Assembly (NCBI GenBank): GCA_965649265.1
Contig: CBFGKC010000006.1
Location: forward strand, 114,975-178,974
Reading direction: 5' to 3'
DNA from: a candidate division WOR-3 bacterium
GTDB taxonomy: Bacteria; Hydrothermota; Tepidihabitantia; B3-TA06
Length of the DNA: 64,000 nt
The notes below the pieces were generated by a model. The model was not told the origin of the DNA. It worked only from the letters and a program-made list of their open reading frames with translations, and did no database searches. Both the position numbers and the translations under genes were made by a program. This document shows positions 7,154-25,538 of this stretch, piece by piece (position 1 is the first letter of the stretch; each line of letters starts with the position of its first letter).

Positions 7154-7294
7154 AGACTGTGTTAAAGGGCTTTGTTCAGCCAGGCAAGGAAAATTCCCGC
7201 CCTTCATGATTTTTAAAAGTAACCCGCACGGTTGATGGTATAAATATCACCACTACTACCTCTGAACAATACCCTTACCTCCTTTCATAAACAA

Positions 7295-11731: not shown

Positions 11732-13069
11732 TCATTTCACAATTATAACCTTGCAGATTCGGCAAGGATCTACATCGGGGACTATGAAATACACGCCTGC
11801 CTCGTGTCCTTTACCCCATTTGAAAGTGCCTTGTGTTTGAGATGGTTTTATTTTGTCCACCTTGCGGCCGGATGCGTCGTATACATCGGCTTGAAAACCG
11901 CTGGGATGTCCCGAGTATTGCAGCACTATCTCCTTACCGATGGGGGAGAGGAGTTGCCAGGCTGTTATTTGCTCGACAGCAGGTTTTTCCGCGACTCCTA
12001 CGTTGCCAAGGGAATCGGTCTTAATAAGACAGATTTTGTAAATACCGCTTTCCGAGGTCATAACCTCTCCGGTAATAATAAAACCCTTATCCTGGGTTTC
12101 CTGGACACTGAATCCTCTGTTCCATGAGTTTTCGCCGAATTGTTTTGTCCACTGAAAGTTTCCATTTTTATCTAACTTAAGGAGGAGCAGAAAAGTTCCG
12201 TGATCGGTCCTGAAAATTCCGGTTGCGGCTAAACCGCCGTCATATGTCTCATCACAATCATAGGCCTGCAGAGAATCTCTTGCAAAAGACCAGACTGTAT
12301 CCCCCAGTTCATCGAGCTTGAGTATCCATAAAGCCTGCCCGCCGTTTTTCCAGCCTGCAACATAGTACCCACCTTCGGTCTGGTGTATGGAGTAGCCCTT
12401 TTCTCCTTCCGTGGACAAGCCATGGCTTTTTGCCCAAAGGAGATTGCCCTTATCATCGGTCTTGACAACGCCCAGATGAAAGGCTGAATCTCTGCCTGTT
12501 ACAATAAAACCGTTATCTTCAGTTTTTGCGATACACAAACCTTCCAGCCCATACTGGTGCGTCCAGACCGTATCGCCGTTCTTGTCGAACTTCATGATAG
12601 TCCAGGGGGTGCCTGTTGCAGCATATCCGTCTGCCGTTTCGATTACACATTCGCCATAAGAAAAACCACTATTATTGCCAATCGCCTGAGTCCATAAAGT
12701 GTCGCCATAAGGGTTCGTTTTTATCAACCACAAATGAACCGTCTGCCAGCCACCCGCACAACTACCCACGAGCGTATATCCTTCGTCAGTTGTTTGGATG
12801 ACAGAAAGGCCTTTACCGCCGTAAGCTTTTGAATCCTTGTATGTTTTAGACCATTGGATTTCGCCCAAAGGATCGGTTTTCAGGAGGCAGGTTCCGGCTA
12901 CTATATATCCTCCATCCTTTGTTTGCTTGACGGAGTATCCTGAATTGAAATCAGCGTCACCGTAAGTTTTCATCCAGCCGGCAACACTCGACAGAGGGAA
13001 TATCAGCAACCCAAGAACCGTCAAGACTATGTTTGTCAGAGGATTAAACACTAACCTCGATTTTTCCAT
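11732..13069 (-). CDS. Secreted repeat protein (same ~50-aa repeat family as 2652..4340) with T9SS-type C-terminal domain
   Basis: N-terminal hydrophobic segment LTNIVLTVLGLLIFPLSSVAG. Repeats such as VKQTKDGGYIVAG...KTDPLGEIQW and IQTTDEGYTLVG...WLIKTNPYGDTLW. C-terminus IVLQYS...DVYDASGRKV...GVYFIVPDVDPCRICKVIIVK. Confidence 0.7.
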   Translation of the reverse strand: MEKSRLVFNPLTNIVLTVLGLLIFPLSSVAGWMKTYGDADFNSGYSVKQTKDGGYIVAGTCLLKTDPLGEIQWSKTYKDSKAYGGKGLSVIQTTDEGYTLVGSCAGGWQTVHLWLIKTNPYGDTLWTQAIGNNSGFSYGECVIETADGYAATGTPWTIMKFDKNGDTVWTHQYGLEGLCIAKTEDNGFIVTGRDSAFHLGVVKTDDKGNLLWAKSHGLSTEGEKGYSIHQTEGGYYVAGWKNGGQALWILKLDELGDTVWSFARDSLQAYDCDETYDGGLAATGIFRTDHGTFLLLLKLDKNGNFQWTKQFGENSWNRGFSVQETQDKGFIITGEVMTSESGIYKICLIKTDSLGNVGVAEKPAVEQITAWQLLSPIGKEIVLQYSGHPSGFQADVYDASGRKVDKIKPSQTQGTFKWGKGHEAGVYFIVPDVDPCRICKVIIVK

Positions 13070-13157
13070 AAAACCTCCTCAAGGTTTTTTTGGCTTACGC
13101 CTCCTCATTAACGCCCAACAATTAAATTCTGGTCAAAAAACCTGCTTATCAAGCTCT

Positions 13158-14459
13158 CTAGCTCGCGTAAGGGAACAGGAACTTTAGCGATGCGCCGAAG
13201 CGGTAGAACTTTTCGGTATACAAATCTTCCTCCAGCCCGAACTTCTTGGACCAGGTCGCGTACTCGAAGGAACTGTTGAGGACAACATACGAAGAGATAG
13301 GTATGCCTATCCCTGCGGTTACACCTTTGAGATACTTTGGTGTGTGCTGGCCTGAGTCGGCCTGCGGGATCGCGTCAAAGTAGAAACCTCCGCGTACTAT
13401 CACAGGCGATACGAATTCGGCACCGAAGCGGAACGTGGAACCGTCGTTCACGCCGAGCCTTGAGCCTAAGGCCTCGACGGCAGTGAAGAAGCGAGTCTGG
13501 AATTCACCTGAAAGATTGAGGAAAGGCAAAATCTTCGACCGCAAACCGACGGTGAAGACGCCGGGCAACATGTAGGCTGTTGAGTCATCTACCTGGTGTT
13601 TTATCTGAATTCCATTAGTGTCCAATACAAGCGTTGAATCAAACCAAGTAATCTCCGTTCCGGAAAGGCTTTCCTCGCCCCATCTCCAGCCCCAGGCTAT
13701 AGGTGATCGATATGAGAAGCTTATACCCAACTGGGGAAAGGGTTCCGCAAACGCGCCTACAGTGAAAAAATTTCCTGTCGAGGAGAAGTTACCTTTGTAT
13801 CTTATTCGTGTTTCATCGTATATACCGGAGGTGTCCCCGTCTTCAATCTCAAGATCATCGTAAACGCTTACTTCGTAATAGCTGCTTTTGAGCTTCTCTA
13901 GTGCGCTGAAGCTGAAGGCCAGACCAATGGAGTAATTGTCCAGTATGCTCATTGCGATCGCCGGGGTTATTACCCTTAAACCGCCGGTTGCGGTATCGGT
14001 CATCTTATAACTTCCGTTTTCGAATTCCCAGTTAATCTCCCTGTTGACGGCATTATCAATATGTAGGTGATAGCCGAAAGCAGGATAGAGCACAGCGTAT
14101 TCCGCGATCTGGATGGGCAAAGCTAAAGAGACGTGTGTGAACTGGGGGATGGTGTTATATTTTGTGTAGTATTGCTCTTCTTGTATCTCTTCCTGGCCGA
14201 AACCCCAGTAAAGCCTTCCGCCGATCTCCATTTCAAGATAATCAGCGTCCAGCAAAAGAGCAGGATTGAAAAAGATGGCGTTCGAACCCTGAGCGCTGAC
14301 CGATCCGGTATTGCCCATGCCGCAGGAACGGACATCCACGACGGTGGGATTAATTGCGTCAACCATAAATGCATAAACGGTTGAATTTACGAAAAATAGC
14401 GGTAACAATACGACCAAAGTCTTAAAGGTCGCTTTTTTTTCAAATCCTGACATGCACAT
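13158..14459 (-). CDS. Putative outer-membrane beta-barrel protein (PorV/FadL-like N-terminal motif)
   Basis: ATG 14459 after GGAGGT (track ORF extends to 14567). Signal-like FKTLVVLLPLFFVNSTVYA. The motif GMGNTGSVSAQGSNAIFFNPALLL resembles the G-x-G-G...NPA motif of PorV/PorQ/FadL-like barrels. Sequence shows alternating amphipathic pattern. Weak family call. Confidence 0.45.
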   Translation of the reverse strand: MCMSGFEKKATFKTLVVLLPLFFVNSTVYAFMVDAINPTVVDVRSCGMGNTGSVSAQGSNAIFFNPALLLDADYLEMEIGGRLYWGFGQEEIQEEQYYTKYNTIPQFTHVSLALPIQIAEYAVLYPAFGYHLHIDNAVNREINWEFENGSYKMTDTATGGLRVITPAIAMSILDNYSIGLAFSFSALEKLKSSYYEVSVYDDLEIEDGDTSGIYDETRIRYKGNFSSTGNFFTVGAFAEPFPQLGISFSYRSPIAWGWRWGEESLSGTEITWFDSTLVLDTNGIQIKHQVDDSTAYMLPGVFTVGLRSKILPFLNLSGEFQTRFFTAVEALGSRLGVNDGSTFRFGAEFVSPVIVRGGFYFDAIPQADSGQHTPKYLKGVTAGIGIPISSYVVLNSSFEYATWSKKFGLEEDLYTEKFYRFGASLKFLFPYAS

Positions 14460-14492
14460 ACCTACCTCCAGGCTTGCCTTTTTTGTATCTAT

Positions 14493-14521
14493 AGTGTATA
14501 CCGAAACATGTGATTTGTCAA
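14493..14521 (-). promoter_or_regulatory. sigma70-type promoter TTGACA-N17-TACACT (minus strand)
   Basis: TTGACA 14521-14516, TACACT 14498-14493, about 30 nt upstream of ATG 14459. Confidence 0.4.
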
Positions 14522-14671
14522 GCCCTTCTGTGAGCTTCTGGTCATCTAAGTCAAGCCAAAAAAACATCTGTAACCGTCAGCCCTCTCAGTCATATCCCGG
14601 CATTGGTCTTACAGACTGAGTTAATTGGAATAATATCCAAATCACAAGCAGAGAAAGATGTGTTACTGAGT

Positions 14672-14968
14672 CCTCCTCAGAAACCTCCTCAGAGCTACCC
14701 CTCAGTCTTCCTTACATCCCCGGCGCTCCTCATTGGATCAGTAATAATGAAACAGCAGAAGCCGGAGGGTTCTGCCAATGCGCCTCCGGCGCTCCTCATT
14801 GGAGAGTAGAAGTAAAATGGCGGAAGCGGAGCTTGCGCCCAGCGCCTTCGAGGCGCTCGCTCTCCTCAGAAATACCCTGACACATGTCTGACACACTGAG
14901 CTAATCTTAGCGGTATGTTTCTATTTATGAGCTATGAGGGAGAAGGGGGGGCAGGAGCCCTCCTCAGA
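14672..14968. repeat. Composite repeat island: CCTCCTCAGA copies plus GC hairpins (GCGCC-TCC-GGCGC, GCGCA/G-GCT-TGCGC)
   Basis: CCTCCTCAGA at 14672 and 14684, with shorter CTCCTCAGA/CCTCAGA copies ending at 14870 and 14968. The segment 14790-14855 is about 85% identical to the 86-bp unit at 51946 and 52078. Confidence 0.75.
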
Positions 14969-15040
14969 GACCTCTCGGTGTCGATTTTACATAATTTTCT
15001 GAGCGGAGTATCTTTCTATTCACGACCAATGAGGGATGGT

Positions 15041-15096
15041 GTGTTACGGGGGGGGGACGGGTGTTACGGGTGGGTGTTACGGGTGGCGTTACGGGG
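15041..15096 (-). repeat. C-rich decamer array (CCCGTAACAC on the gene strand), 4 copies, overlapping the rSAM stop codon
   Basis: Plus strand reads GTGTTACGGG at 15041, 15061 and 15074, and GCGTTACGGGG at 15087. Same motif arrays occur at 48002-48082 and 58790-58832. Confidence 0.8.
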
Positions 15097-16111
15097 CAGA
15101 GAGAATCTGGGCGACGAATGGTTCGGTACCACCGCATTCATTTGCGGCGGCCCGGCACGATGCCCGGCATGTCTCGATATCCTTGCACCCTCTGCACATC
15201 TCCGGTATATCCTCAATGAACTCCTTCCTTTCGGCGGAATCCATCAGCTCCCAGAAACTTTTTTCCCTGATATTCCCGAGAACGAGCGGGGTGTGGTTGC
15301 ACGGACGCAGATTGCCTATGGAATCCACCACCGGGTAGCACTCCTCGGTTCCCGCCGAGCAGAAACCGAAGCCGAGATGCGGGTAGTTCTTAATATCCAC
15401 GAGGCAGCAGGGGATAGGTATCGATACGCTTATGGGGAACCTCTTTTCTACCGCGAACCGCTCGGCTGTGTCGAGCATGAAGAGCACATCCTGGGGGGAG
15501 GGGGAGAGTTCGTCGAGATTCTCGAGTCCCCTTCCGCCGGGATTGAAGCGGTTGAGCATCACGCCGTGCGTACCGAGGCTCCTTGCGAACTCCAGGGTTT
15601 CCCAGAGCCTTGCGAGGTTGATCTTTGTGACGATCAGGGCGACTACAATCTTCGCCTTTGTCGAAAGCACGGCCTCTATCCCTCGAACTGATTTCTCGAA
15701 GCTTCCACTGCATCCCTGCAGGTATTCGTGCTCGTCTGGCCTGTCCGATAGAAGCTGGATCTCGAAAAGAGAGATTCCAGCCCTCACAAGCGTCTTTGCG
15801 AGTTTCTTGTCGAGCGCCTGGCCGTTCGTGATGATGTTGAGCTGAGCGCCCGAGAGTGCGGCCTGAAGCGAGATGTCCACGAGATCGGGTCTCAGAGTCG
15901 GTTCTCCGCCGCTTATCGTGAAGAGTGACGGCTTCGTCTCTTTTAAGAGCTTTGCCAGCATCTCGCGGGTTTCCTTTGGGTTCAAGTCCTCATGTACAGT
16001 TTCCGGATGCTTATGCCAGATGTTGTAGCAGAAGCGGCATTTGAGATTACATCTTTGGGTTACTTCGAAGATGAGGATTTTCTGGCGGCGGTCCCTTAAC
16101 GAATCGTTCAT
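15089..16111 (-). CDS. Radical SAM enzyme with C-terminal SPASM-type auxiliary cluster domain
   Basis: CNLKCRFC (CX3CX2C) at residues 21-28. GGEPTL SAM-binding-like motif. C-terminal FCSAGTEEC...GNLRPC...LGNI...CRGCKDIETCRASC cysteine pattern. The ATG lies 1 nt after the stop of paralog P1 (TAG-C-ATG). Confidence 0.85.
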   Translation of the reverse strand: MNDSLRDRRQKILIFEVTQRCNLKCRFCYNIWHKHPETVHEDLNPKETREMLAKLLKETKPSLFTISGGEPTLRPDLVDISLQAALSGAQLNIITNGQALDKKLAKTLVRAGISLFEIQLLSDRPDEHEYLQGCSGSFEKSVRGIEAVLSTKAKIVVALIVTKINLARLWETLEFARSLGTHGVMLNRFNPGGRGLENLDELSPSPQDVLFMLDTAERFAVEKRFPISVSIPIPCCLVDIKNYPHLGFGFCSAGTEECYPVVDSIGNLRPCNHTPLVLGNIREKSFWELMDSAERKEFIEDIPEMCRGCKDIETCRASCRAAANECGGTEPFVAQILSAP

Positions 16112-16112
16112 G

Positions 16113-16688
16113 CTAATTATCTTCCTTTTTCTCAGTTCCTGACGTATCCGGTTTGCTGACTATTAGTTTTGCCAGGTGAGAGGTTTCAGAATTAAGCGAG
16201 GATATTTTCATGAAGACCCTGACGGTTTCAGGCGGAAGGCCTCGAACATCCAGCCTCGCTTCCAGAAGTTCCGCGGAGCTGTCGAATTTCCCGTCGACCG
16301 GGTCGAGCGATATAATATAAGGTTCAGCATCCGGTCGGCTAACCGCGGCCGTAGCACTGTATATTATGTCACCAGGTATTTCTGTTCTTCCAAGAACCTT
16401 TATAGTTACGGAATCCGCACCCCTGGTCGGGTTGGGATAGATCAAAAGCGAGTCGACAATCTCATCTGCAGGCGGAGAAAAATGAACATAGTAGCAAGTA
16501 ATCGCCGGTTCATAGTGACGGTGTGTCAGACATCCTATGAGCGAAAGTAAGCCTCCTAGAAGAACCAGTTTAAAATGTCTGGTTGTTCTTGAAAATCGGT
16601 TCTTGCTCTCTAAAACCGAAAGAAGATGGAATACTAAACCTCCCGCTCGGCTCAACAACCCTGAGAGCCTATTACGCAACTTGATCAC
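16113..16688 (-). CDS. Array paralog P1 of 12 (numbered by coordinate): anchored Ig-like protein, unknown family, lipobox variant
   Basis: GTG start. MIKLRNRLSGLLSRAGGLVFHLLSVLE. Lipobox-like LIGC. ITCYY. YPNPTRGADSVTIKV. DGKFDSSAE. Acidic tail KPDTSGTEKKEDN. Confidence 0.8.
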   Translation of the reverse strand: MIKLRNRLSGLLSRAGGLVFHLLSVLESKNRFSRTTRHFKLVLLGGLLSLIGCLTHRHYEPAITCYYVHFSPPADEIVDSLLIYPNPTRGADSVTIKVLGRTEIPGDIIYSATAAVSRPDAEPYIISLDPVDGKFDSSAELLEARLDVRGLPPETVRVFMKISSLNSETSHLAKLIVSKPDTSGTEKKEDN

Positions 16689-16717
16689 TGGTCAATATAC
16701 GGCTGATAGGGATGGTG

Positions 16718-17278
16718 TCAATCCTTTTCTTCCGTAGAGTCAGGGTCCGTCACGACAAGCATTAGTTGTTGCGTATACATGCCTGCCTGGGAGGTGTAGA
16801 AGGTCAGGTCCACCCATGTTGTTTCGGAGACAAGCCCTCCGATATAGAACCTCCCCTGAACGGCCTCAAGCGTGTCCGAAAAATCTCCGTCAACCGCATC
16901 GAGAGGCGTAAGAAGCGTGTCTGATGCCAGTTTTATCGTCGCGCCGGTAATGATGTTGCCTTCTATTCCCGGATCGTAAACCTTGGCCGTCGCCTTCACC
17001 GTTACCGTATCCGCGCCTTTTGTAGGATTCGGCGTAATAGCAGCCTCGGTGACTACCACGGGGTCAATTATGGCCATGTCGTAGCAGGTTGCTATGGGTG
17101 TCTCCGGCTGTGCCCTGAGCCAGCCTGCAACAGTCAGAACGAGACCTAAAACGAAGAGCTTGGTCCACCTCGCCGTCTTTTTAATAGTTCCCTCCTCCTC
17201 CCAGCTTGAAAGAACCGGAAGGAGTTTTGCTCCTATCCTCGTTATGAATGATGAAAGCGCGTTTCGAGTCTTAATCAT
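16718..17278 (-). CDS. Array paralog P2
   Basis: MIKTRNALSSFITRIGAKLLPVLSSWEEEG. ARWTKL plus hydrophobic helix ending WLRAQ. ATCYD. TPNPTKGADTVTVKATAKV. DGDFSDTLE. Tail DPDSTEEKD. Confidence 0.8.
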   Translation of the reverse strand: MIKTRNALSSFITRIGAKLLPVLSSWEEEGTIKKTARWTKLFVLGLVLTVAGWLRAQPETPIATCYDMAIIDPVVVTEAAITPNPTKGADTVTVKATAKVYDPGIEGNIITGATIKLASDTLLTPLDAVDGDFSDTLEAVQGRFYIGGLVSETTWVDLTFYTSQAGMYTQQLMLVVTDPDSTEEKD

Positions 17279-17307
17279 GTTTTACTGTACCTCACTTTTC
17301 CGGACTG

Positions 17308-17865
17308 TCAATCTTTTTCTGTCGAATCGGGTTCAGAAATCACAAGCTGCAGCCCTTCAACATTTATGCCTGCCTGCGGGGTGTAGAATGTGATGTAAAC
17401 CCGGGTGGTTTCGGGTCCAAGCCCGGTGACGCACAGACGGCCTTCAACTGTCTCGAGCGTGTCCGAAAACTTGCCGTCGACCGCACGGAGAGGGACAATA
17501 ACCGTATCGCCGCCAATTCTTGCATCCGCTCCGGAGATTATATTGCCTTCAAGTTTCGAATCGTAGACCCTTGCGGTCGCTCTCACCGTAACCGAGTCGG
17601 CGCCATTTGTGGGGTTAGGCGTAATAGCAGCCTCAGTGATTATTACCGGTTCAATGACGACCGGATCATAACAGGTCGCATACCCCCTGGTCTCTTGGGC
17701 CGAGAGCCAGCCTAGTAAGCCCAGGATGAAACCCAGAATGTAGATTTTTGCAAATCTCGCGAATCCCTTAAGAACCCCTTCCTCCTCCCACCTTGAGAGA
17801 AGCGGGAAGAGTTTTGCTCCAACATTGCTTACAAACGCCGCGAGCGAGCTGCGAGCTTTGGCCAT
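17308..17865 (-). CDS. Array paralog P3
   Basis: AAGGAGG RBS. MAKARSSLAAFVSNVGAKLFPLLSRWEEEG. ATCYDP. TPNPTNGADSVTVRATARV. DGKFSDTLE. Tail EPDSTEKD. Confidence 0.85.
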   Translation of the reverse strand: MAKARSSLAAFVSNVGAKLFPLLSRWEEEGVLKGFARFAKIYILGFILGLLGWLSAQETRGYATCYDPVVIEPVIITEAAITPNPTNGADSVTVRATARVYDSKLEGNIISGADARIGGDTVIVPLRAVDGKFSDTLETVEGRLCVTGLGPETTRVYITFYTPQAGINVEGLQLVISEPDSTEKD

Positions 17866-17929
17866 AAAATTCCTCCTTGACTGCGACTACTCCTGTTATA
17901 CAGTTGCAGGTGCAATAAATTCCCTTAAC

Positions 17930-18469
17930 CTATTCGGTTATCTCGATATCTGAGCTGTCTTCGATTACCTTGTTCTTGCTTGTAGATATTCTGACATGGA
18001 CTTTTGCGTTTGCGGTATCGATACCCCTGATGCTTAACTTCGCCGAGATTTCCTCGTATGAACCGTCAAAAGCACTATCCGCAGCCAGCATCTCCACCGT
18101 GTCGGAATTTGCACCTTTCCCGGTAATGAAACACTGTGCCGATTTTACATAATTGTCCTTGGAGCCTGGGATTATATTGGCTCTGGCTTTGACCATAACC
18201 GAGTCGGCTCCAGCCGTAGGATCAGGCAAAACCTCGATATTATGAATGGGGGGAGGTACAGGCTCGTAGCACGTGACCGGGCAGCAGGCGGTCGAGCCGG
18301 CCGCTCCGGAAAGACCTAATCCTGAAACGAGTGCACTCAGGAATGAAAGCTTCATCCACCTTGCAAGCTTGGGTAGTACCCTGCGTTCCTCGCATCTTGA
18401 GTAGAAGTCAAAAAGCGCAAAACCGGCTTTCCTGAGAATCTCGAAAACAATGTGTCTTGCCTGAGCCAT
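17930..18469 (-). CDS. Array paralog P4
   Basis: The track ORF extends to 18547. ATG 18469 (MAQARHIVFEILRKAGFALFDFYSRCEERRVLP) aligns with the other N-termini and removes the overlap with P5. VTCYEP. LPDPTAGADSVMVKA. Confidence 0.8.
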   Translation of the reverse strand: MAQARHIVFEILRKAGFALFDFYSRCEERRVLPKLARWMKLSFLSALVSGLGLSGAAGSTACCPVTCYEPVPPPIHNIEVLPDPTAGADSVMVKARANIIPGSKDNYVKSAQCFITGKGANSDTVEMLAADSAFDGSYEEISAKLSIRGIDTANAKVHVRISTSKNKVIEDSSDIEITE

Positions 18470-18476
18470 GATACTG

Positions 18477-19016
18477 CTATTCTGATTCCGTGATGTACAA
18501 ATCCACTGTCGTGTAATCTCGCTCCCCTTTATTGGAGGTGGCCTCAATGTTTACACTGCAGGTATCGCCTGCGGCAAGATTGCCTACGTATAATCGAGCT
18601 TCTACGTCTTTCATTCCGTATGGATCGGTTTTCGTGACAATCATCGTTATGGTGTCGTCATTAAGAACACATATCACCTTATCCACATAATCTTCTTCTA
18701 TGCTTACTCCATTGGGGACATTTGCGCTCGCTTCAACGGTTACTGAATCTGAGCCTGACGTCGGATTAGGGGTTATTGAGCAGGTTGCGATTTGAGGTTT
18801 CGGGTACTCCATCGGTGCGTAACACGTTATGCAGTTGAGCATGCTGGCCGCACTCAATGCGGTAATTCCTGTCACGAAGGCTCCGAGGAAGGTCGTTTTT
18901 ACCCACCTGGAAGCCCTTGGCAGTATCCCGCAATCCTCACAGTGGGAGAAGAAGTTGAAGAGTGATGTTCCCATTCTCCTCAAGGTTTCAAAGAAGAGGT
19001 AGCGGCTACTGGCCAT
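18477..19016 (-). CDS. Array paralog P5
   Basis: GGAGG RBS. MASSRYLFFETLRRMGTSLFNFFSHCEDCGILPRASRWVKTTFLGAFVTGITALSAASM. ITCYAP. TPNPTSGSDSVTVEA. Confidence 0.85.
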   Translation of the reverse strand: MASSRYLFFETLRRMGTSLFNFFSHCEDCGILPRASRWVKTTFLGAFVTGITALSAASMLNCITCYAPMEYPKPQIATCSITPNPTSGSDSVTVEASANVPNGVSIEEDYVDKVICVLNDDTITMIVTKTDPYGMKDVEARLYVGNLAAGDTCSVNIEATSNKGERDYTTVDLYITESE

Positions 19017-19031
19017 TGTGCCTCCGGTGAT

Positions 19032-19547
19032 TTATTCAGTTATCTCGAGGTCGATTGTTGTATCCGCTCGCTGGTCTTCATTGTCGTATTCTGTGATTTG
19101 TATGGTTACTGTATCGGGCTCGAGGTCTCCTATATACAACTTCGCGTTCACGGCATATTCATTCGTGTAGTCTCCAGGCTCTATCTTCATGACGGTGGTG
19201 TCATTCTCGAGGATACATATCACCTTTTTCAATTCAATCCCGTTATCGGCAATTGCCTTGGCGGAAACGCTAACAGTGTCGGCCCCTGCCGTAGGATTTG
19301 GTGCCACGGAGGCGTTTTCGATTCGAGGTGATTCAATTGGCAAGTAGCAGCCGGTGGGGATACAGTTGATCATGCTGGCCGCGCTCAACGCGGTAATTCC
19401 TGTCACGAAGGCTCCGAGGAAGGTCGTTTTTACCCACCTGGAAGCCCTTGGCAGTACCCCGCATTCCTCACAGCGAGAGAAGAAGTTAAAGAGTGAGGTG
19501 CCTATCCTCCTCAAGGATTCAAAGAAAAAAAACTTTGTTCTAGCCAT
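19032..19547 (-). CDS. Array paralog P6
   Basis: ATG 19547 after AAAGGAGG (track ORF extends to 19580). MARTKFFFFESLRRIGTSLFNFFSRCEECGVLPRASRWVKTTFLGAFVTGITALSAASM. TGCYLP. APNPTAGADTVSVSA. Confidence 0.85.
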   Translation of the reverse strand: MARTKFFFFESLRRIGTSLFNFFSRCEECGVLPRASRWVKTTFLGAFVTGITALSAASMINCIPTGCYLPIESPRIENASVAPNPTAGADTVSVSAKAIADNGIELKKVICILENDTTVMKIEPGDYTNEYAVNAKLYIGDLEPDTVTIQITEYDNEDQRADTTIDLEITE

Positions 19548-19569
19548 GGTTCCTCCTTTCACTGTATTA

Positions 19570-19597
19570 AATATAATCAACTTGCTCGGATTGTCAA
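19570..19597 (-). promoter_or_regulatory. Internal sigma70-type promoter TTGACA-N16-TATATT inside the array (upstream of P6)
   Basis: TTGACA 19597-19592, TATATT 19575-19570, in the 82-nt P7-P6 gap. Confidence 0.45.
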
Positions 19598-19629
19598 TCC
19601 ATGAAAATCACCTGAAATCCTGGCAGGTG

Positions 19630-20157
19630 TTATTTATCAGTAACGCGGAGAACGGTCGAGCCTATGCCCCAGCCTGAGGTTTTTGAATCGACTTTTACAA
19701 AGACCTGAGTGCTGTCCGTTTTGATTTTCTTCACGTATATGCGCCCGATGAGTTCCTCATTATTCTCGTCGAATGCGCCGTCCCTCGCTATCATCCGGAT
19801 GGTGTCTCCATCGACTATGCACTGGGCTGAGGCTATTATTTCGAGATCGCTTGCGTTTTCAAGTCTGGCTTTGGCGGTAACGGTCACCGAGTCGGCGCCT
19901 TTCGTCGGGTTAGGCTTGACTACTATCTCCGAAACCCTGGGATATACGGCCACAGGTTCGTAGCAGGTCACGAGCCCCTGATCCAGCGGAGGTTTTTTGG
20001 CGCATGCCGCAATGATGGTCAGCCACGCTCCAGCAAGCGCGAGCTTGAGCCAGCGTGATATCCTTGGCAGAGCGCTTCGTTCCTCACACCCGGTCAGAAT
20101 GGAGAACAGTGCCGAGCCTGTTCTCCTCAAAAACCTTGACAGTAACTCTCGCTTCAT
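19630..20157 (-). CDS. Array paralog P7, lipobox variant
   Basis: MKRELLSRFLRRTGSALFSILTGCEERSALPRISRWLKL. Lipobox-like IAAC. VTCYEP. KPNPTKGADSVTVTA. ATGA overlap with the P8 stop. Confidence 0.8.
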   Translation of the reverse strand: MKRELLSRFLRRTGSALFSILTGCEERSALPRISRWLKLALAGAWLTIIAACAKKPPLDQGLVTCYEPVAVYPRVSEIVVKPNPTKGADSVTVTAKARLENASDLEIIASAQCIVDGDTIRMIARDGAFDENNEELIGRIYVKKIKTDSTQVFVKVDSKTSGWGIGSTVLRVTDK

Positions 20158-20726
20158 AACGAGTCCTTTTCAGTGATAAATAGCGGTAATGAAACCAGTG
20201 CTTCTTCACCCTTGGAAGTGGCCGCGTGCACGTAGACGAAGGTGGTCCCGGGTTTAAGACCCGCGACGCTGATGCGTGCCTCAATCATCTCGACGGTATC
20301 CGAGAAGCGGCCGTCCACAGGGTACATCCGGATTTTCCTTGACGTATCAATGGCCATTACGAGCCAAGCATCCGACACGTAATTGTTCTCAAGGCCAGGT
20401 TCCAGCACCCTTGCGGTGCCCGTTATCTTGACAGTGTGCACGCCCCTTGTCGGGTTCGGGCTTGCCTGAACTACTGAGATTTCGGGATCCATCCTTCTCA
20501 TCATGTAACATGTGTGGACAGGACCGTCGCCGTCTCCTCCTGGTCCGGGTCTTGCCTTTTTCCCGCACGAGGCTATCAGGGCGACAACGAGCCCGAGTAG
20601 CGAAACCTTCAAAAAGCGCGCGGTCTTTGAAAATATTGGAGTATCCTGGCATCTCGATAGCGCATTAAACACCAGATTACCTGCATTTCTGAGAACTGCA
20701 ATCAAGCTCTTTCTCATCTTTGCCAT
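20154..20726 (-). CDS. Array paralog P8, lipobox variant
   Basis: MAKMRKSLIAVLRNAGNLVFNALSRCQD. Lipobox-like IASC, then Gly/Pro/Asp linker. HTCYM. SPNPTRGVHTVKITG. DGRFSDTVE. Confidence 0.8.
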   Translation of the reverse strand: MAKMRKSLIAVLRNAGNLVFNALSRCQDTPIFSKTARFLKVSLLGLVVALIASCGKKARPGPGGDGDGPVHTCYMMRRMDPEISVVQASPNPTRGVHTVKITGTARVLEPGLENNYVSDAWLVMAIDTSRKIRMYPVDGRFSDTVEMIEARISVAGLKPGTTFVYVHAATSKGEEALVSLPLFITEKDSL

Positions 20727-20745
20727 TCTGCCTCTCCTATCTCGT

Positions 20746-21288
20746 TTAATCTGGTTCAGTAATCACCAGTTCTAAAGATTCAATTTCAATTTGACCGGAA
20801 GAATTTTCTACCTCTAAGTATATCCATGTCGTTTCCGGCTCAAGGTCTCCAACGTAAAGTCGGCCGACTATTCTCTCCGAAGCGGCGTCGAATTTCCCGT
20901 CAATCGCCCGCATGGGGTAATATATTGTATCTCCATCCATTCTCATGCGGGCTGAGCTTATCGTGCTTTCGCCGCTGTAGTGATCGCTAATCTTTGCCGT
21001 GGCCTTGACGGTTACCGAATCGGCGCCCCTTGTAGGGTTAGGCCTTACGGAAAGTTTGGATAGTTCTATGAGGGGAGGGGGGGCGGGCTTGTAGCACATT
21101 ATGACGTCTTCCTTTGCTTCGAGCGAGAGAGCGCTCACGAGTGCCACGAAAAATCCGAGGAATGTGAGCTTCAACCATCTTGCCGCCCCGGGGAGGATGC
21201 GGCGTTCCTCGAATCCGGAAAACGTTCCGAAAAGCCTTCCGCCAATCCTTGCAAAAAAGTCTGCCAGGCGTTTTCTGAGTTCAGGCAT
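20746..21288 (-). CDS. Array paralog P9
   Basis: AAGGAGGA RBS embedded in the P10 tail codons. MPELRKRLADFFARIGGRLFGTFSGFEERRILPGAARWLKL. IMCYKP. RPNPTRGADSVTVKATAKI. DGKFDAASE. Confidence 0.85.
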   Translation of the reverse strand: MPELRKRLADFFARIGGRLFGTFSGFEERRILPGAARWLKLTFLGFFVALVSALSLEAKEDVIMCYKPAPPPLIELSKLSVRPNPTRGADSVTVKATAKISDHYSGESTISSARMRMDGDTIYYPMRAIDGKFDAASERIVGRLYVGDLEPETTWIYLEVENSSGQIEIESLELVITEPD

Positions 21289-21289
21289 A

Positions 21290-21859
21290 TCAATCCTCCT
21301 TATTCTCGTTGCTGTCCGCTTCCGGTGCGGTGATGATTAATTGCCTCCAGGTGCTTTCCGCGTTGCCTGAGTTTGTCCTCACCACTATGTAAATCCAGGT
21401 GGTCTCCGGCTTGTGATCCCCGACGTAGAGACGGCCTTCGACTGTTTCAAGGGTATCGCCGAACTTACCGTCAACCGCTTTCATCGGATATAAAAGGGTA
21501 TCTCCGGTAAGCTGCATAATTGCTTCGGAAACAGCGGTGTCACCTGAGCAATAATATGCAGATTCCAATTTTGCGGTTGCCTTGACTGTAACGGTGTCTT
21601 TTCCTGCAGTGGGGTTCGGTGTTGCCGAGACATCGAAGATACTTAAGTGAGGTTCCTCAATAGGCACGTAGCACATGATGATATCGTCGTCCGCCTTGAG
21701 CGCTGGCGCGCCCAGCAGGGTTACCAGCAATCCCAGAACCGAAAGCTTTAGCCATCTTGCCGGTCTGCGTAGGATACCGCGTTCCTCCAATCCGGACAGT
21801 ATCCCGAATAAGGAGCCGCCTATCCGTGAAGAGATGCGGGCCAGTAAGCCTTTTGTCAT
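21290..21859 (-). CDS. Array paralog P10
   Basis: The ATG directly follows the P11 stop (TAGATG). MTKGLLARISSRIGGSLFGILSGLEERGILRRPARWLKL. IMCYVP. TPNPTAGKDTVTVKATAKL. DGKFGDTLE. Tail EADSNENKED. Confidence 0.85.
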   Translation of the reverse strand: MTKGLLARISSRIGGSLFGILSGLEERGILRRPARWLKLSVLGLLVTLLGAPALKADDDIIMCYVPIEEPHLSIFDVSATPNPTAGKDTVTVKATAKLESAYYCSGDTAVSEAIMQLTGDTLLYPMKAVDGKFGDTLETVEGRLYVGDHKPETTWIYIVVRTNSGNAESTWRQLIITAPEADSNENKED

Positions 21860-22435
21860 CTACTCCTCCCTGGCAGCGCTCGAATCAGCTGCGAGCGAAT
21901 CAATCCTTGTTACGGTGTAGGACTGCCAAAGAATCTCTTCATCTTCTCTGGAACTCGTCACGTCTATAAAGAACCAGTGGGTGCCGGTATCCAGGTCGCC
22001 TGTGTAAAACATGGCCTCAAGAACCTCAAGAGTGTCGTTAAGCTTGCCGTCCACGGCCTTCATGGGAATCCTCAGGGTGTCACGCTGCCTGGAAAGCCAG
22101 GCGTTTCGGATGTAATTGTTCTCAAGGGTCGGGTCCAGAACTTTTGCAGTTACCTTTACTTTTACCGAGTCCGCTCCTCGAGTCGGATTTGGTGTGATGG
22201 ACACATCCGAAATCTTTACCTCCGGCATCCTCATGGCTACGTAACAGGTCTTAATTGTTTCTACCTCGGCGGAAAGTGCTCCGATGGCTGCGGTAAGAAA
22301 TCCAAGCAGTGAGAGCTTTAACCAGCGCGAAGCGCTGGGCACAATCCCGCGCTCTTCGAATCGCGACAGGAGTGAAAAGAGACCTCCTCCCAGCACTTCA
22401 AGAATCCTTACGACGAACCCTTTCGTTCTCGCCAC
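21860..22435 (-). CDS. Array paralog P11
   Basis: The track ORF extends to 22654. GTG 22435 (AAAGGTGGAG RBS, 1 nt after the P12 stop) gives MARTKGFVVRILEVLGGGLFSLLSRFEERGIVPSASRWLKL, matching the family. KTCYV. TPNPTRGADSVKVKV. Confidence 0.75.
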   Translation of the reverse strand: MARTKGFVVRILEVLGGGLFSLLSRFEERGIVPSASRWLKLSLLGFLTAAIGALSAEVETIKTCYVAMRMPEVKISDVSITPNPTRGADSVKVKVTAKVLDPTLENNYIRNAWLSRQRDTLRIPMKAVDGKLNDTLEVLEAMFYTGDLDTGTHWFFIDVTSSREDEEILWQSYTVTRIDSLAADSSAAREE

Positions 22436-22436
22436 G

Positions 22437-23009
22437 TCACTCCACCTTTGTCGAATCAGTCCTGATAGAATCAGGCTCCGAGACTTCAAAATAAAACCAG
22501 CTCGCTTCCAGTGCATCCTGGGATGTCTGGACGAGCATTGAGATCGAGTACTGGCCCGGTTCAAGATTTCCAACGTAAACCGTACCCTCGAGCACCTCGA
22601 GCGTGTCGTCCATCTTGCCGTCAAGTGCTTTGACCTTGAACCTCGTCGTATCACCGTCCCAGGAGAGCCAGGCGTCCTTTATGAAGTTATCCTTGATATT
22701 CGAGTACATCACCTTGGCCTGGGCCTTCACTTTCACCGAATCCGCTCCCTTCGTGGTATCAGGGGTTACGGACTTCTCTGTTATGATGACGTCGGGAATC
22801 CTCGCGACGATGTAGCAGGTGACTTCCGGATCCCTGGCTTGAAGTGAGAGTGTCGCGACTAGCGAGGCTATGATTCCCAGGGTCGAGATCTTTATCCATC
22901 TCGCGGCACGCGGCATGACGCCTTTTTCTTCTATCATTGTCAGAAAATGGAAAATTGCATCTCCCAGTTTCCCTAACAGCCTGGATAAGAGGTTGCGTGT
23001 CTTGGCCAT
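22437..23009 (-). CDS. Array paralog P12 (first gene of the operon)
   Basis: ATG 23009 after AAAGGAG (track ORF extends to 23087). MAKTRNLLSRLLGKLGDAIFHFLTMIEEKGVMPRAARWIKI. VTCYI. TPDTTKGADSVKVKA. DGKMDDTLE. Confidence 0.8.
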   Translation of the reverse strand: MAKTRNLLSRLLGKLGDAIFHFLTMIEEKGVMPRAARWIKISTLGIIASLVATLSLQARDPEVTCYIVARIPDVIITEKSVTPDTTKGADSVKVKAQAKVMYSNIKDNFIKDAWLSWDGDTTRFKVKALDGKMDDTLEVLEGTVYVGNLEPGQYSISMLVQTSQDALEASWFYFEVSEPDSIRTDSTKVE

Positions 23010-23058
23010 CGTCGCTCCTTTAATTCTCAATACAAGAAAACATCTCAAATATTCCCCA

Positions 23059-23086
23059 CAATATAAGCCCCAAAAGACAGGTGTCA
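23059..23086 (-). promoter_or_regulatory. sigma70-type promoter TTGACA-N16-TATATT driving the paralog array
   Basis: Reverse complement reads TTGACA (23086-23081), cctgtcttttggggct, TATATT (23064-23059). About 45 nt upstream of ATG 23009. Confidence 0.55.
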
Positions 23087-23111
23087 AGCATATCTTACGG
23101 GCGGATACTCA

Positions 23112-23140
23112 TTGACAAAGATGCAGCATTTCTCTATAAT
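23112..23140 (+). promoter_or_regulatory. Perfect-consensus sigma70 promoter TTGACA-N17-TATAAT, divergent from the array promoter
   Basis: TTGACA 23112-23117, 17-nt spacer, TATAAT 23135-23140. Confidence 0.6.
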
Positions 23141-23145
23141 AAAAC

Positions 23146-23223
23146 ATGGGAAAGAACAGGGAGTTTCCAATGAAAAAAAAAAGGTTTGTGATAGTTCCGA
23201 GTCATTTTACAGGGAGAGATTGA
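23146..23223 (+). CDS. Candidate leaderless 25-aa upstream ORF (MGKNREFPMKKKRFVIVPSHFTGRD)
   Basis: ATG 5 nt after the TATAAT. Its stop TGA (23221-23223) lies 1 nt before ATG 23225 of the next gene. No homology evidence. Confidence 0.3.
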   Translation: MGKNREFPMKKKRFVIVPSHFTGRD

Positions 23224-23224
23224 G

Positions 23225-24547
23225 ATGCATCCATTTCTGGTTTTCTGTTGTTGTTTGATTTCATCTTTGACTTGGAATAGACATTATGATTTTCGGTTTA
23301 GTGACCACTGTAGCGCGCTTGTGCCGGTAGAGGACGGTTACGTGATTACGGGTAACACTATGCGGTATCTATTCGTGCAGAAGGTCGATACTCTGGGAAA
23401 TCAAGTCGGTTACAAAGAGTGGTATAAGGCCGAAGGTTATGACATAGAGAGAATGTCTGATGGTTATATTATTCTTGCGTACAAAGACGAATCTCCCAGG
23501 CACGGGATTTGGTTGGTAAGAACAGATAGCGATTTTGACACACTTTGGAGTAGAAGCTATGGATATAATAATGGAATTATGGCAAAATCTCACTCATTTG
23601 ATTTAACAGATGACAGTGGTTTAGTGATGGTCGGTGAGTGCGGCACGGGTCTTATTGTCTTTAAAACCGATAGTCTTGGTGATAGCTCCTGGGTAAAAAA
23701 ATATTTTCAGTCTGTCTCGATGCGCGCTGGGAATTTTATTGAAGAAACATCTGATCAAGGTTTTATTGTTACGGGAGTTTGTGAGGAACGTTTTTTTGCA
23801 CTGAAATTGGATGAGAATGGGGATTCCTTATGGTGTAAGAAATATTTTGAGGAAAAAACAGGTGAAGGTCTTTGTATAAGAGAAACCTCCGACAAAGGCT
23901 TTATAGTATTGGCTAGGATAAGGTATGGTAGTTCGGATTCCTTGCTTCTCATCAAGACGGATTCTTTTGGAAACGCTTTGTGGGTGAGAAAATTCAATTC
24001 GATGTCTCATTGGACTAGAACATGTTATATTGAGGTTCTGGATGATGGTTATGTTATGATTTCAGGGTCACAAGAAGGTCCATTAGTCAGGAAATTTGAC
24101 GAGTCTGGGAATGTCCTTTGGACAAAGACCTACAATCGTAATTTCGGTTATTTTTCCGGATTTGAAGGCACATGTATTCATTACACATCGGATAAAGGTT
24201 TTATTATTGGCACCGCTTTGGATATATCTCCATACGGATCAGACCTCTGGCTGGTGAAAACCGACAGCCTAGGAAACACGGTTCCTCTTGAATCCGTGAT
24301 AGAGCCAACGGAGACTGCCGTTAGCGAAGTTCATCTGAGTGTTTTGAATTCAGCTGTTGCATATTCCTTACCTGCTGGCGAGCGTTGTTTGTTGAAAATC
24401 TATGATGTTAGTGGAGTATTGAAAAAAGGAGAAATTGTTTGTGGCCGCGGAGAGATGCGACTAAAAGAATTCCCTGTAGGGGTTTATTTCGCTGAGTTAC
24501 AGTTCATGCGAAGTGCTGAAATCAAAAAGGTATTAGTTTTTCCCTAG
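23225..24547 (+). CDS. Secreted repeat protein (same ~50-aa repeat family as 2652 and 11732) with T9SS-type C-terminal domain
   Basis: Repeats such as IEETSDQGFIVTG...LKLDENGDSLW and IRETSDKGFIVLA...LLIKTDSFGNALW. C-terminus LLKIYDVSGVL...GVYFAELQFMRSAEIKKVLVFP. Confidence 0.7.
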   Translation: MHPFLVFCCCLISSLTWNRHYDFRFSDHCSALVPVEDGYVITGNTMRYLFVQKVDTLGNQVGYKEWYKAEGYDIERMSDGYIILAYKDESPRHGIWLVRTDSDFDTLWSRSYGYNNGIMAKSHSFDLTDDSGLVMVGECGTGLIVFKTDSLGDSSWVKKYFQSVSMRAGNFIEETSDQGFIVTGVCEERFFALKLDENGDSLWCKKYFEEKTGEGLCIRETSDKGFIVLARIRYGSSDSLLLIKTDSFGNALWVRKFNSMSHWTRTCYIEVLDDGYVMISGSQEGPLVRKFDESGNVLWTKTYNRNFGYFSGFEGTCIHYTSDKGFIIGTALDISPYGSDLWLVKTDSLGNTVPLESVIEPTETAVSEVHLSVLNSAVAYSLPAGERCLLKIYDVSGVLKKGEIVCGRGEMRLKEFPVGVYFAELQFMRSAEIKKVLVFP

Positions 24548-24576
24548 TCGAAAATAGTTTTCGTTGACTAACTCTT

Positions 24577-25017
24577 TTGTTCAAGTACAATCCCCGCGTG
24601 AAGCAGCTCTTATCGGACTGGCGGGTGCTTTCGGCGATCGCGATACTCGGATGGGGGACCTGGGGCATACTCTCAAAGATTGCCCTGAAACAGGTTGACT
24701 GGCGGGTCATGATGCTGATTACGTCCGTAGCCGCCCTTCCTCTGGCTTTCATACTCGGGATTCCGAATTTCGACTGGAAGTTTAACCGCTACATCCTTCT
24801 CGCTTTTTTTGCAGGAATCGGAGCCGAGGTCGCGACGCTCTCCTTCAACCGCGCGATTCAAAAGGGCGGACCCGCGAACGTCGTGGTCCCACTCACCTCA
24901 CAGTACGTGCTCGTCATAGTGCTTTTTTCGACCATTTTCCTAAAAGAGCCTATAACGTGGCAGAGAATCGTCGGCATCGTTGCCGCGCTCATAGCAATTG
25001 TGATGCTTTCGCTGTGA
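24577..25017 (+). CDS. Small DMT/EamA-like membrane transporter (single EamA-type domain)
   Basis: 146 aa with 4-5 hydrophobic helices. FFAGIGAEVATLSFNRAIQKGGPANVVVPLTSQYVLVIVLFSTIFLKEPITWQRIVG resembles an EamA domain. TTG start, or the downstream GTG. Confidence 0.55.
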   Translation: MFKYNPRVKQLLSDWRVLSAIAILGWGTWGILSKIALKQVDWRVMMLITSVAALPLAFILGIPNFDWKFNRYILLAFFAGIGAEVATLSFNRAIQKGGPANVVVPLTSQYVLVIVLFSTIFLKEPITWQRIVGIVAALIAIVMLSL

Positions 25018-25322
25018 TATTTTTCCTTATCGAATGAGTGCAAATCGAACCACCTCTTTCGTACTCTCCTTCTTACCCCCGGGATAGTATTGAGGGCGTC
25101 ATTGCGTTGTTCACAGGATTACTGATATGGTTTTGCATGCAGAATTGCAAAGAATACTATATTTAAGAAAACACCCGATTTTCAGGCGAAGTTAAAGATA
25201 CAAATCGAAAATCATTACGGCGGCGACAATCATTGCGAATCAACGCTATAATCCCTAATGCACAATTGATGAATTTCCTGTGACTTGATACGGTGGCCTT
25301 CGGCAAAAGCCGAAATCTACTG

Positions 25323-25538
25323 TTATTTCCTTGAAGCTTTGTTCAGTTCTTGCAGAACTTTTTCAGGCTCGGCAATATTGTAGCGGTCCATAAGCTCACC
25401 AACGGTTCCCCAGGCTGGTTCGCCGCAAACAAAGCAAGGCATACCAAACGCTATGAAAACCTCGACCGTTTCAGGATATTTCGAAATCACCTCTTCGATG
25501 ACGGATTCCCTCGAAATCTCAAAGTCTCCTTTATTCAT
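25323..25538 (-). CDS. DUF1858-like small redox/disulfide protein
   Basis: 71 aa. ...VISKYPETVEVFIAFGMPCFVCGEPAWGTVGE... shows the C-x-x-C pattern typical of DUF1858 (hybrid-cluster-protein-associated) domains. Confidence 0.55.
   Translation of the reverse strand: MNKGDFEISRESVIEEVISKYPETVEVFIAFGMPCFVCGEPAWGTVGELMDRYNIAEPEKVLQELNKASRK

Follow-up and report, generated by a model that had tools for sequence, protein, structure and literature searches.

A probable gene-conversion patch between two tandem paralogs beside a radical SAM/SPASM gene in a candidate division WOR-3 bacterium

Two neighbouring genes in a tandem array of a candidate division WOR-3 bacterium share a tract of near-identical DNA, which is very probably a short ectopic (interlocus) gene-conversion patch between two old paralogs. 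The genes were analyzed in a stretch of 64,000 nucleotides (nt) from contig CBFGKC010000006.1 of assembly GCA_965649265.1, hereafter the window. The first, P5 (18477..19016, minus strand), was delimited from the list of open reading frames (ORFs) and by inspection of ribosome-binding site and start, and encodes 179 residues. The second, P6 (19032..19547, minus strand), starts at the ATG of MARTKFF, encodes 171 residues, and is the presumed recipient of the converted tract. Both belong to a family of 12 paralogs, P1-P12 (16113..23009, minus strand), that are co-directional and separated by gaps of -4 to 82 nt. The phenomenon itself is ordinary: it adds a new case of interlocus gene conversion to those of other tandem gene families.

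The near-identical tract of P5 and P6

The original prediction, made from the sequence of the window, had reported about three differences between 18841-18915 and 19372-19446, an identical run of more than 50 nt covering synonymous sites, and the same encoded sequence in both genes. Direct counts bore this out. Specifically, at an offset of 531 nt the two segments differ at 2 of 75 positions, the longest stretch of exact identity measures 67 nt (18859-18925 = 19390-19456), and both genes encode LPRASRWVKTTFLGAFVTGITALSAASM in the near-identical region. For the other 65 of the 66 paralog pairs, the longest exact run was at most 17 nt. A repeat search matched 18829..18995 to 19360-19526 on the minus strand (167 nt, 92% identity). 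Within this extended repeat, the unambiguous conversion tract comprises gene nt 92-186 (codons 31-62, encoding ...LPRASRWVK and a hydrophobic segment), located at 18831..18925 in P5 and 19362..19456 in P6, both on the minus strand. The first 67 nt of the P5 copy match the P6 copy exactly, and the four differences between the copies are A/G, T/C, C/A and C/T. The 5' part of the extended repeat, gene nt 22-91, could not be assigned to the conversion event because it is conserved in the P4-P6-type genes of all genomes.

The identity of P5 and P6 decays toward the start codons and collapses in the 3' half, also as predicted: it was 72% over gene nt 1-57, 93% over nt 58-186 and 53% after nt 186. 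Synonymous divergence, which the prediction had proposed to compare between the 5' module and the 3' part, was unequal. Thus, the Nei-Gojobori proportion of synonymous differences (pS) was 0.27 in the N-terminal module versus 0.74-0.76, i.e., saturated, in the rest of the gene. In a best-segment permutation test, the P5-P6 signal was significant at p < 5e-4 using polymorphic sites and at p < 5e-5 using third codon positions only, and no other window pair came near it. The nucleotide identity of the N-terminal module in other window pairs was 36-63%, so there is no general conservation of this module at the DNA level. A 16-site match between P8 and P11 was considered as a second conversion and rejected, its significance being lost after correction for 66 pairs.

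A similar, weaker mosaic had been proposed for P2 and P3 around their PNPT block. This proposal did not hold, as the coordinates compared were 7 nt out of register: the true offset is 587 (32 of 40 nt match) and not 580 (8 of 40). When aligned properly, P2 and P3 are uniformly 61-67% identical, with pS values of 0.59 in the N-terminal module and 0.58 in the rest. The PNPT block is a conserved family motif common to 10 copies.

Orthology in related genomes and the origin of the tract

Related loci were bounded by an EamA gene at one side and the radical S-adenosylmethionine (SAM)/SPASM gene at the other. Besides the window with its 12 copies, they came from genome A (GCA_012517375.1; 9 copies), genome C (Logan SRR16002674 and others; 10 copies), genome D (Logan SRR29900444; about 11 copies, one frameshifted), and two genomes at NCBI with a single copy each, TA06 bacterium B3_TA06 and a WOR-3 metagenome-assembled genome. 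Copy number over the six genomes was therefore 1, 1, 9, 10, about 11 and 12. In all six, the array or single family gene lies directly upstream of the radical SAM/SPASM gene, whose nucleotide identity to that of the window is 90% in C, 79% in A, 74% in D and 64% in TA06 B3. The copies in C include C8x (L004:9415-9942), an intact family gene that the gene caller missed, calling only a 77-residue piece. The frameshifted copy in D (L007 5147-5682) is split into 53 and 125 residues.

Outside the tract, P5 and P6 belong to separate lineages. P5 is the ortholog of A7, to which its mature part is 86% identical in nucleotide sequence, and P4 is the ortholog of A8. The first 57 nt of P6 and the ends of its mature domain place it with A6, C8x and D7; over those 57 nt, it has 9 differences to A6, 12 to C8x and 16 to P5. 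Inside the tract, P5 and P6 group together. Over the 95 positions of nt 92-186, P5 and P6 differ at 4, each of them differs from C8x at 8, and P5 differs from A7 at 24; the corresponding counts are 41 for P6-A6, 37 for P6-D7, 44 for A6-A7 and 12 for A6-D7. Informative sites in the quartet of P5, P6, A7 and A6 were distributed accordingly. In nt 1-57, 6 sites supported orthology (P5 with A7, P6 with A6) and none supported either the within-genome grouping (P5 with P6, A7 with A6) or the third one (P5 with A6, P6 with A7). The respective numbers were 0, 6 and 0 in nt 58-186, and 42, 3 and 2 from nt 187 to the end. At sites of the tract region where A7 and A6 differ, P6 agrees with A7 at 26 and with A6 at 8. 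Since P6 resembles P5 and A7 and not A6 or D7 within the tract, and follows orthology outside it, P5-type sequence appears to have replaced this part of a P6-lineage gene.

Synonymous codons followed the same pattern. Among codons 32-62 that specify the same amino acid, 25 of 28 were identical between P5 and P6, as compared to 11 of 26 between P5 and A7 and 4 of 15 between P6 and A6. Homogenisation of synonymous sites is confined to the tract. Together with the orthologous grouping on either side, this upholds one of the two explanations originally offered, that gene conversion homogenised the N-terminal module.

The other explanation, a recent tandem duplication after which the mature domain or ectodomain diverged very fast and adaptively and the N-terminal half remained unchanged, fits the adjacency of P5 and P6 and the fact that neither has a closer paralog in the window (57% amino acid identity). 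We nevertheless consider it close to untenable. The mature-part pS of the pair is saturated, which makes the divergence there old and not fast, and the corresponding ratio of nonsynonymous to synonymous divergence (dN/dS) is approximately 0.18, not above 1. Moreover, the 86%-identical ortholog of the P5 mature part is found in genome A, and the P5- and P6-types coexist in A (A6, A7) and in D (D6-D9) with the tract unconverted, A6 and A7 differing there at 44 of 95 positions. The first 57 nt of P5 and P6, at 72%, are less similar to each other than to those of the respective orthologs. Indeed, the two mature-domain lineages are older than the split of the four genomes.

The 5' side of the tract adjoins a region with a pattern of its own. 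In the first ~90 nt of P4-P6-type genes, synonymous sites are conserved even between genomes A and D: A7 and D7 have 23 of 26 codons identical and no differences in nt 58-91, although the radical SAM/SPASM genes of A and D are only 73% identical with a pS of 0.68. The 91-nt copies compared lie at 18926-19016 and 19457-19547 in the window, at 5494-5584 and 6031-6121 in L001, and within 3539-4700 in L007. This conservation between A and D is not explained by within-genome conversion. P5 and P6 have 5 differences in nt 58-91, equal to the numbers for P5-A7 and P6-A7. A conversion scan also flagged 5' tracts in A and D (A6-A7, D6-D8 and D7-D8). These were not accepted as conversions because similarity in the 5' 91 nt is just as high between genomes (7 differences for A7-D7, 11 for A6-A7).

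The conservation of the 5' 91 nt between A and D, synonymous sites included, also speaks for an effect of selection. If there had been no recombination, the P5/P6 tract would have been held identical by selection on the protein or the nucleotides, e.g., by an RNA element or strict signal-peptide requirements. We judge this very improbable. The tract proper, nt 92-186, differs at 24-44 of 95 positions among orthologs and paralogs of other genomes, and the N-terminal modules of other window pairs are as divergent as described above. An Rfam scan of 13000-25500 gave no match. Finally, selection cannot account for P6 matching P5 and A7 instead of A6 and D7.

Genome C, the closest to the window, carries a P5-type tract on its P6-like gene, C8x. 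This finding bears on an assembly artefact, that is, a chimeric or collapsed repeat in a metagenome-assembled contig. Such an artefact was worth considering in that the window P5 and P6 proteins each occur on a single contig and an exact repeat of 67 nt can branch a de Bruijn graph. However, both copies are intact, in frame and in tandem, and can be told apart by mismatches beside the repeat; a wrong join there would lead to the loss or rearrangement of genes and not to a mosaic; and the assemblies of genome C, made independently from at least seven samples, have the same tract type on the P6-like gene. The probability of an artefact is accordingly very small.

The occurrence in C also informs the timing of the conversion. 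In flanking genes, pS was 0.20-0.49 between the window and C, and 0.64-0.80 between the window and A. We infer that the first event followed the split from lineage A and preceded or roughly coincided with the split between the window and C lineages; as C8x has the same tract type, the simplest placement is before the latter. The 4 differences between P5 and P6 versus 8 between P6 and C8x, or 25 of 28 versus 21 of 27 identical same-amino-acid codons, hint at a later re-homogenisation in the window lineage, the difference not being significant.

In the proposed event, P5-type sequence of at least 95 and at most about 135 nt would have replaced the matching part of the P6-lineage gene. RecA-type recombination would start in the 5' ~90 nt, which have approximately 85-90% DNA identity in all P4-P6-type genes. 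Tandem paralogs can recombine only from a nearly identical segment, and in the P4-P6 subfamily no other part would serve. The heteroduplex would extend through the signal-peptide core, and conversion would stop at the point where the identity of the mature domains drops to about 50%. Swapping one export signal for another is probably neutral, allowing the patch to survive; the exchange would be tolerated because the export modules are interchangeable.

Several points weigh against this interpretation or limit its precision. The 3' boundary of the tract is sharp (nt 186-189), but the 5' boundary depends on only 6 informative sites, all in nt 1-57, as nt 52-91 are conserved in all subfamily members and thus uninformative. 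The mechanism, with a start in the conserved 5' part and a stop imposed by divergence, is a putative one. The timing is uncertain: the 4 versus 8 differences correspond to 3 of 28 versus 6 of 27 codons, and a single early event, a succession of two, or separate events in the window and C lineages would all fit. The donor could have been a P5 allele from another strain and not the resident copy. The window P5 and P6 are known from one assembly only, and the description of the converted module as a signal peptide was made by inspection only.

Probable module exchange, putative export signals and protein fold

The history of the P5/P6 patch is not the only discordance in the array. Pairwise comparison of window genes P1, P8 and P9 with their counterparts in L004 (C10, C6 and C4) and L001 (A4 and A3) revealed modules with separate affinities. 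P1 and C10 have a pS of 0.09 in the N-terminal module and 0.59 in the mature part. The N-terminal module of P8 is A4-like (pS of 0.31, versus 0.71 for C6), and its mature part is C6-like (0.42, versus 0.66 for A4). The mature part of P9 is A3-like (0.33), and C has nothing close to it (0.86). Several window-A segments fall below the flanking-gene divergence of 0.64-0.80, so it is likely that lineages exchanged sequence at the array or kept old alleles. A practical consequence is that whole-gene trees and ortholog calls for the array mislead, since the history of the export module differs from that of the mature domain.

The mosaicism between genomes and the evidence that inter-strain exchange seems to occur lend some plausibility to a different recombinational origin of the P5/P6 tract: either a single unequal crossover yielding a hybrid gene, or a P5-type segment acquired from another strain by homologous recombination. 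On the whole, these origins are unlikely. A single crossover does not give two boundaries within one gene, although one of the two is defined by just six sites. As for import, the resident P5 is the closest known sequence, at 4 of 95 differences, as compared to at least 8 of 95 for copies in other genomes. Conversion between the resident P5-type and P6-lineage genes remains the explanation that we prefer.

Selection on the mature domains was evaluated in 25 ortholog and paralog pairs. The pairwise Nei-Gojobori dN/dS was 0.04-0.27 in the mature parts, and none of the pairs had a value above 1 in this pairwise comparison. Diversity in this family is due to the gain, loss and shuffling of modules, not to detectable positive selection on point mutations. 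The suggestion that the array is a diversifying surface family therefore stands in part: copy-number variation and module shuffling between genomes agree with it, and the pairwise dN/dS values, all below 1, do not. The mature part of P6 (19032-19360) closely resembles nothing in the other genomes (54-56% nucleotide identity; pS of 0.85 even to C) and lacks the DGxF loop found in most members. This domain may have been replaced or may be decaying.

The products of P1-P12 have 171-191 residues, and each gene has its own start codon, usually with a ribosome-binding site. None of the 12 matched any Pfam or NCBIfam model. A profile of the 12 paralogs searched against 5.8 billion proteins matched only 28 protein clusters, all from uncultured TA06/WOR-3-type bacteria. 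The AlphaFold2 model of P5 had a predicted local distance difference test (pLDDT) score of 87.6 and comprised helices at residues 2-29 and 33-61, a low-confidence linker at residues 61-70 (pLDDT of 59) that holds the invariant Cys65-Tyr66, and a confident beta-sandwich of 7-8 strands at residues 75-174. Foldseek searches of the PDB returned only generic immunoglobulin-like sandwiches, including the sulfite oxidase dimerisation domain, NPC2 and SoxYZ. A match to archaellin came from the combination of helix and sandwich only, with a root-mean-square deviation of approximately 7 Å. Assignment as a pilin or archaellin was rejected, since in these proteins it is the second helix that is hydrophobic, the first being charged.

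By inspection, residues ~34-62 resemble a signal peptide, with a basic n-region (ARWxK) followed by 14-18 hydrophobic residues and, 8-10 residues ahead of the Cys-Tyr pair, a lipobox or a small-x-small site. Lipoboxes are present in P1 (16113-16688, minus strand; LIGC), P7 (19630-20157, minus strand; IAAC) and P8 (20154-20726, minus strand; IASC), and the same is true of their orthologs in genomes A, C and D. Other paralogs have small-x-small sites (LSA, LKA, LQA and LEA). The n-region is preceded by a conserved amphipathic extension of 30 residues in which G16, F20 and E27 are nearly invariant. The family thus seems to contain both lipoproteins and signal-peptidase-I substrates, with the 30-residue N-terminal extension in common, and P1-P12 are putative lineage-specific secreted or lipoprotein beta-sandwich proteins. 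The division into an N-terminal module and an ectodomain, noted originally, is retained, with the module probably acting as an extended, cleaved export signal and not as a membrane anchor, and the ectodomain as the mature protein. The conversion tract would then cover the putative n- and h-regions, ending 7 nt short of the Cys65-Tyr66 codons of P5 (ITCYAPME; 18819..18824, minus strand); the corresponding codons of P6 are at 19344-19349 on the minus strand.

Ectopic gene conversion and concerted evolution occur in several bacterial tandem families, such as tuf and the surface-protein genes opa of Neisseria and hop/bab of Helicobacter. The P5/P6 patch resembles these in being short and non-reciprocal, in the homogenisation of synonymous sites and within-genome grouping in the tract only, and in its location in the more conserved 5' part, where identity is sufficient to start recombination. 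It differs in that it falls on a probable signal-peptide module and not on a functional or antigenic region, and in affecting an uncharacterised family from an uncultured TA06/WOR-3-type lineage. The array also shares clustered copies, a conserved 5' part, a variable 3' part and recombination with cassette systems (Neisseria pilE/pilS and Borrelia vlsE) and with diversity-generating retroelements. In contrast to pilE/pilS and vlsE, none of the 12 copies is a silent cassette, each being a complete gene with a start of its own, and conversion affected the conserved module and not the variable part. Variation by silent cassettes or a diversity-generating retroelement was rejected on these grounds and because the four types of mismatch in the tract are not adenine-specific. 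Overall, the P5/P6 mosaic is a textbook-type conversion patch that is unusually well resolved by four related genomes, and it changes no concept.

The radical SAM/SPASM gene and its neighbourhood

The context of the array carries more weight than the patch. The radical SAM/SPASM gene (15089..16111, minus strand) begins 1 nt past the stop codon of P1, and its product matched Pfam Radical_SAM (1.5e-20) and SPASM (4e-7). The enzyme scored below every NCBIfam family cutoff: the best score was 112 bits for AhbD (cutoff of 500), followed by GeoRSP (102/400), PqqE (82/381) and MftC (76/265). Similarly, none of the distant homologs of the enzyme or of their neighbours reached a cutoff of NCBIfam (June 2026) or Pfam. 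For the SPASM part, the top sequence hit in the PDB was the anaerobic sulfatase-maturating enzyme (anSME). Close orthologs of the enzyme, with at least 66% identity, occur only in the TA06/WOR-3 group, and hundreds of homologs of 40-44% identity occur elsewhere.

The Cys and Tyr of the linker motif are invariant in 34 family members. A Cys-Tyr pair was also found in the ORF directly upstream of the enzyme gene in 35 of 39 GTDB loci with enzyme homologs of at least 34% identity (loci L016-L066 of Planctomycetota, Chloroflexota, Armatimonadota, Acidobacteriota, Vulcanimicrobiota and others). Among 55 Cys-Tyr sites, Thr occupied position -1 in 41, and position +3 was Pro in 36 and Met in 12, giving Pro or Met in 48. 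In control ORFs of at least 150 residues from the same loci, Cys-Tyr occurred in 18 of 208 and [TS]CY in 1 of 208. Motifs in the window include TCYAPMEYP in P5, TCYEPVAV in P7 and TCYDMAII in P2; examples from elsewhere are TCYAPMEFMP, TCYEPMIVDY and TCYDMAFMPP. The motif-bearing neighbours are unrelated to the window family, having twin-arginine translocation signals (RRDFMK) in Chloroflexota and an N-terminal membrane helix in Planctomycetota, and the first motif often immediately follows the export signal. The motif also occurs beside homologs of 31-32% identity in Bacteroidales, and is gone beside more distant radical SAM genes.

Based on this co-occurrence, the adjacent radical SAM/SPASM enzyme probably acts on the T-C-Y-x-[P/M] motif, and the two probably constitute an undescribed protein-modification system. 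Literature searches on the enzyme-motif system found nothing relevant, which is not proof of its undescribed status. We lean towards an inclusive interpretation in which the 12 genes are an expanded substrate set of a widespread, uncurated radical SAM/SPASM system acting on T-C-Y-x-[P/M] after the export signal of unrelated secreted proteins in Planctomycetota, Chloroflexota, Armatimonadota, Acidobacteriota, Bacteroidales and TA06/WOR-3. In TA06/WOR-3, the substrate gene would have expanded from 1 to 12 tandem copies whose modules were swapped within and between strains, with the P5/P6 patch as one trace.

The candidate system has features in common with known radical SAM/SPASM maturases, i.e., anSME acting on sulfatases, QhpD on QhpC, and PqqE and MftC on Tyr-containing peptides: the enzyme gene adjoins those of its presumed substrates, and the window proteins have a short invariant motif in a flexible linker. 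The presumed substrates also carry export signals, so modification would precede export. In this respect, they resemble bufferins, described in PMC12452194 as signal-peptide-bearing precursors of RiPPs, peptides made by the ribosome and modified after translation. The T-C-Y-x-[P/M] motif is nevertheless not the C/S-x-P/A-x-R motif of sulfatases, and the presumed substrates differ from those of known maturase systems in being folded proteins of 100-570 residues, present in 12 tandem copies in the window. Furthermore, the window enzyme falls below the curated cutoffs of the known families (AhbD, NirJ, GeoRSP, PqqE, MftC, anSME, and the sactipeptide and ranthipeptide maturases). The relevance of these loci is that an enzyme family with no curated model in Pfam or NCBIfam lies beside T-C-Y-x-P proteins in many phyla. 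Together they offer a testable pairing of enzyme and substrate, two exactly defined residues to examine and, in the window, a natural operon of 12 substrates.

The array may comprise several transcription units, as suggested by promoter-like sequences ahead of P12, P6, P2 and P1. A sigma-70-like match, TTGACA-16-TATATT (19570..19597, minus strand), lies in the 82-nt gap upstream of P6, and a similar one (23060-23087, minus strand) lies upstream of P12, each being a match to the consensus only. Further strong sigma-70-like matches on the minus strand are found upstream of P2 (17284-17311) and P1 (16694-16721). Directly after the radical SAM/SPASM gene is an outer-membrane barrel gene (13158-14567) with weak BamG, PorV and FadL-like similarity, which is absent from the single-copy locus of the WOR-3 genome (L010). 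The surroundings are rich in envelope proteins (13158-14567, 11732-13069, 23225-24547, 4886-7207 and 7438-8856), and several proteins near the array have weak matches to the type IX secretion C-terminal sorting domain.

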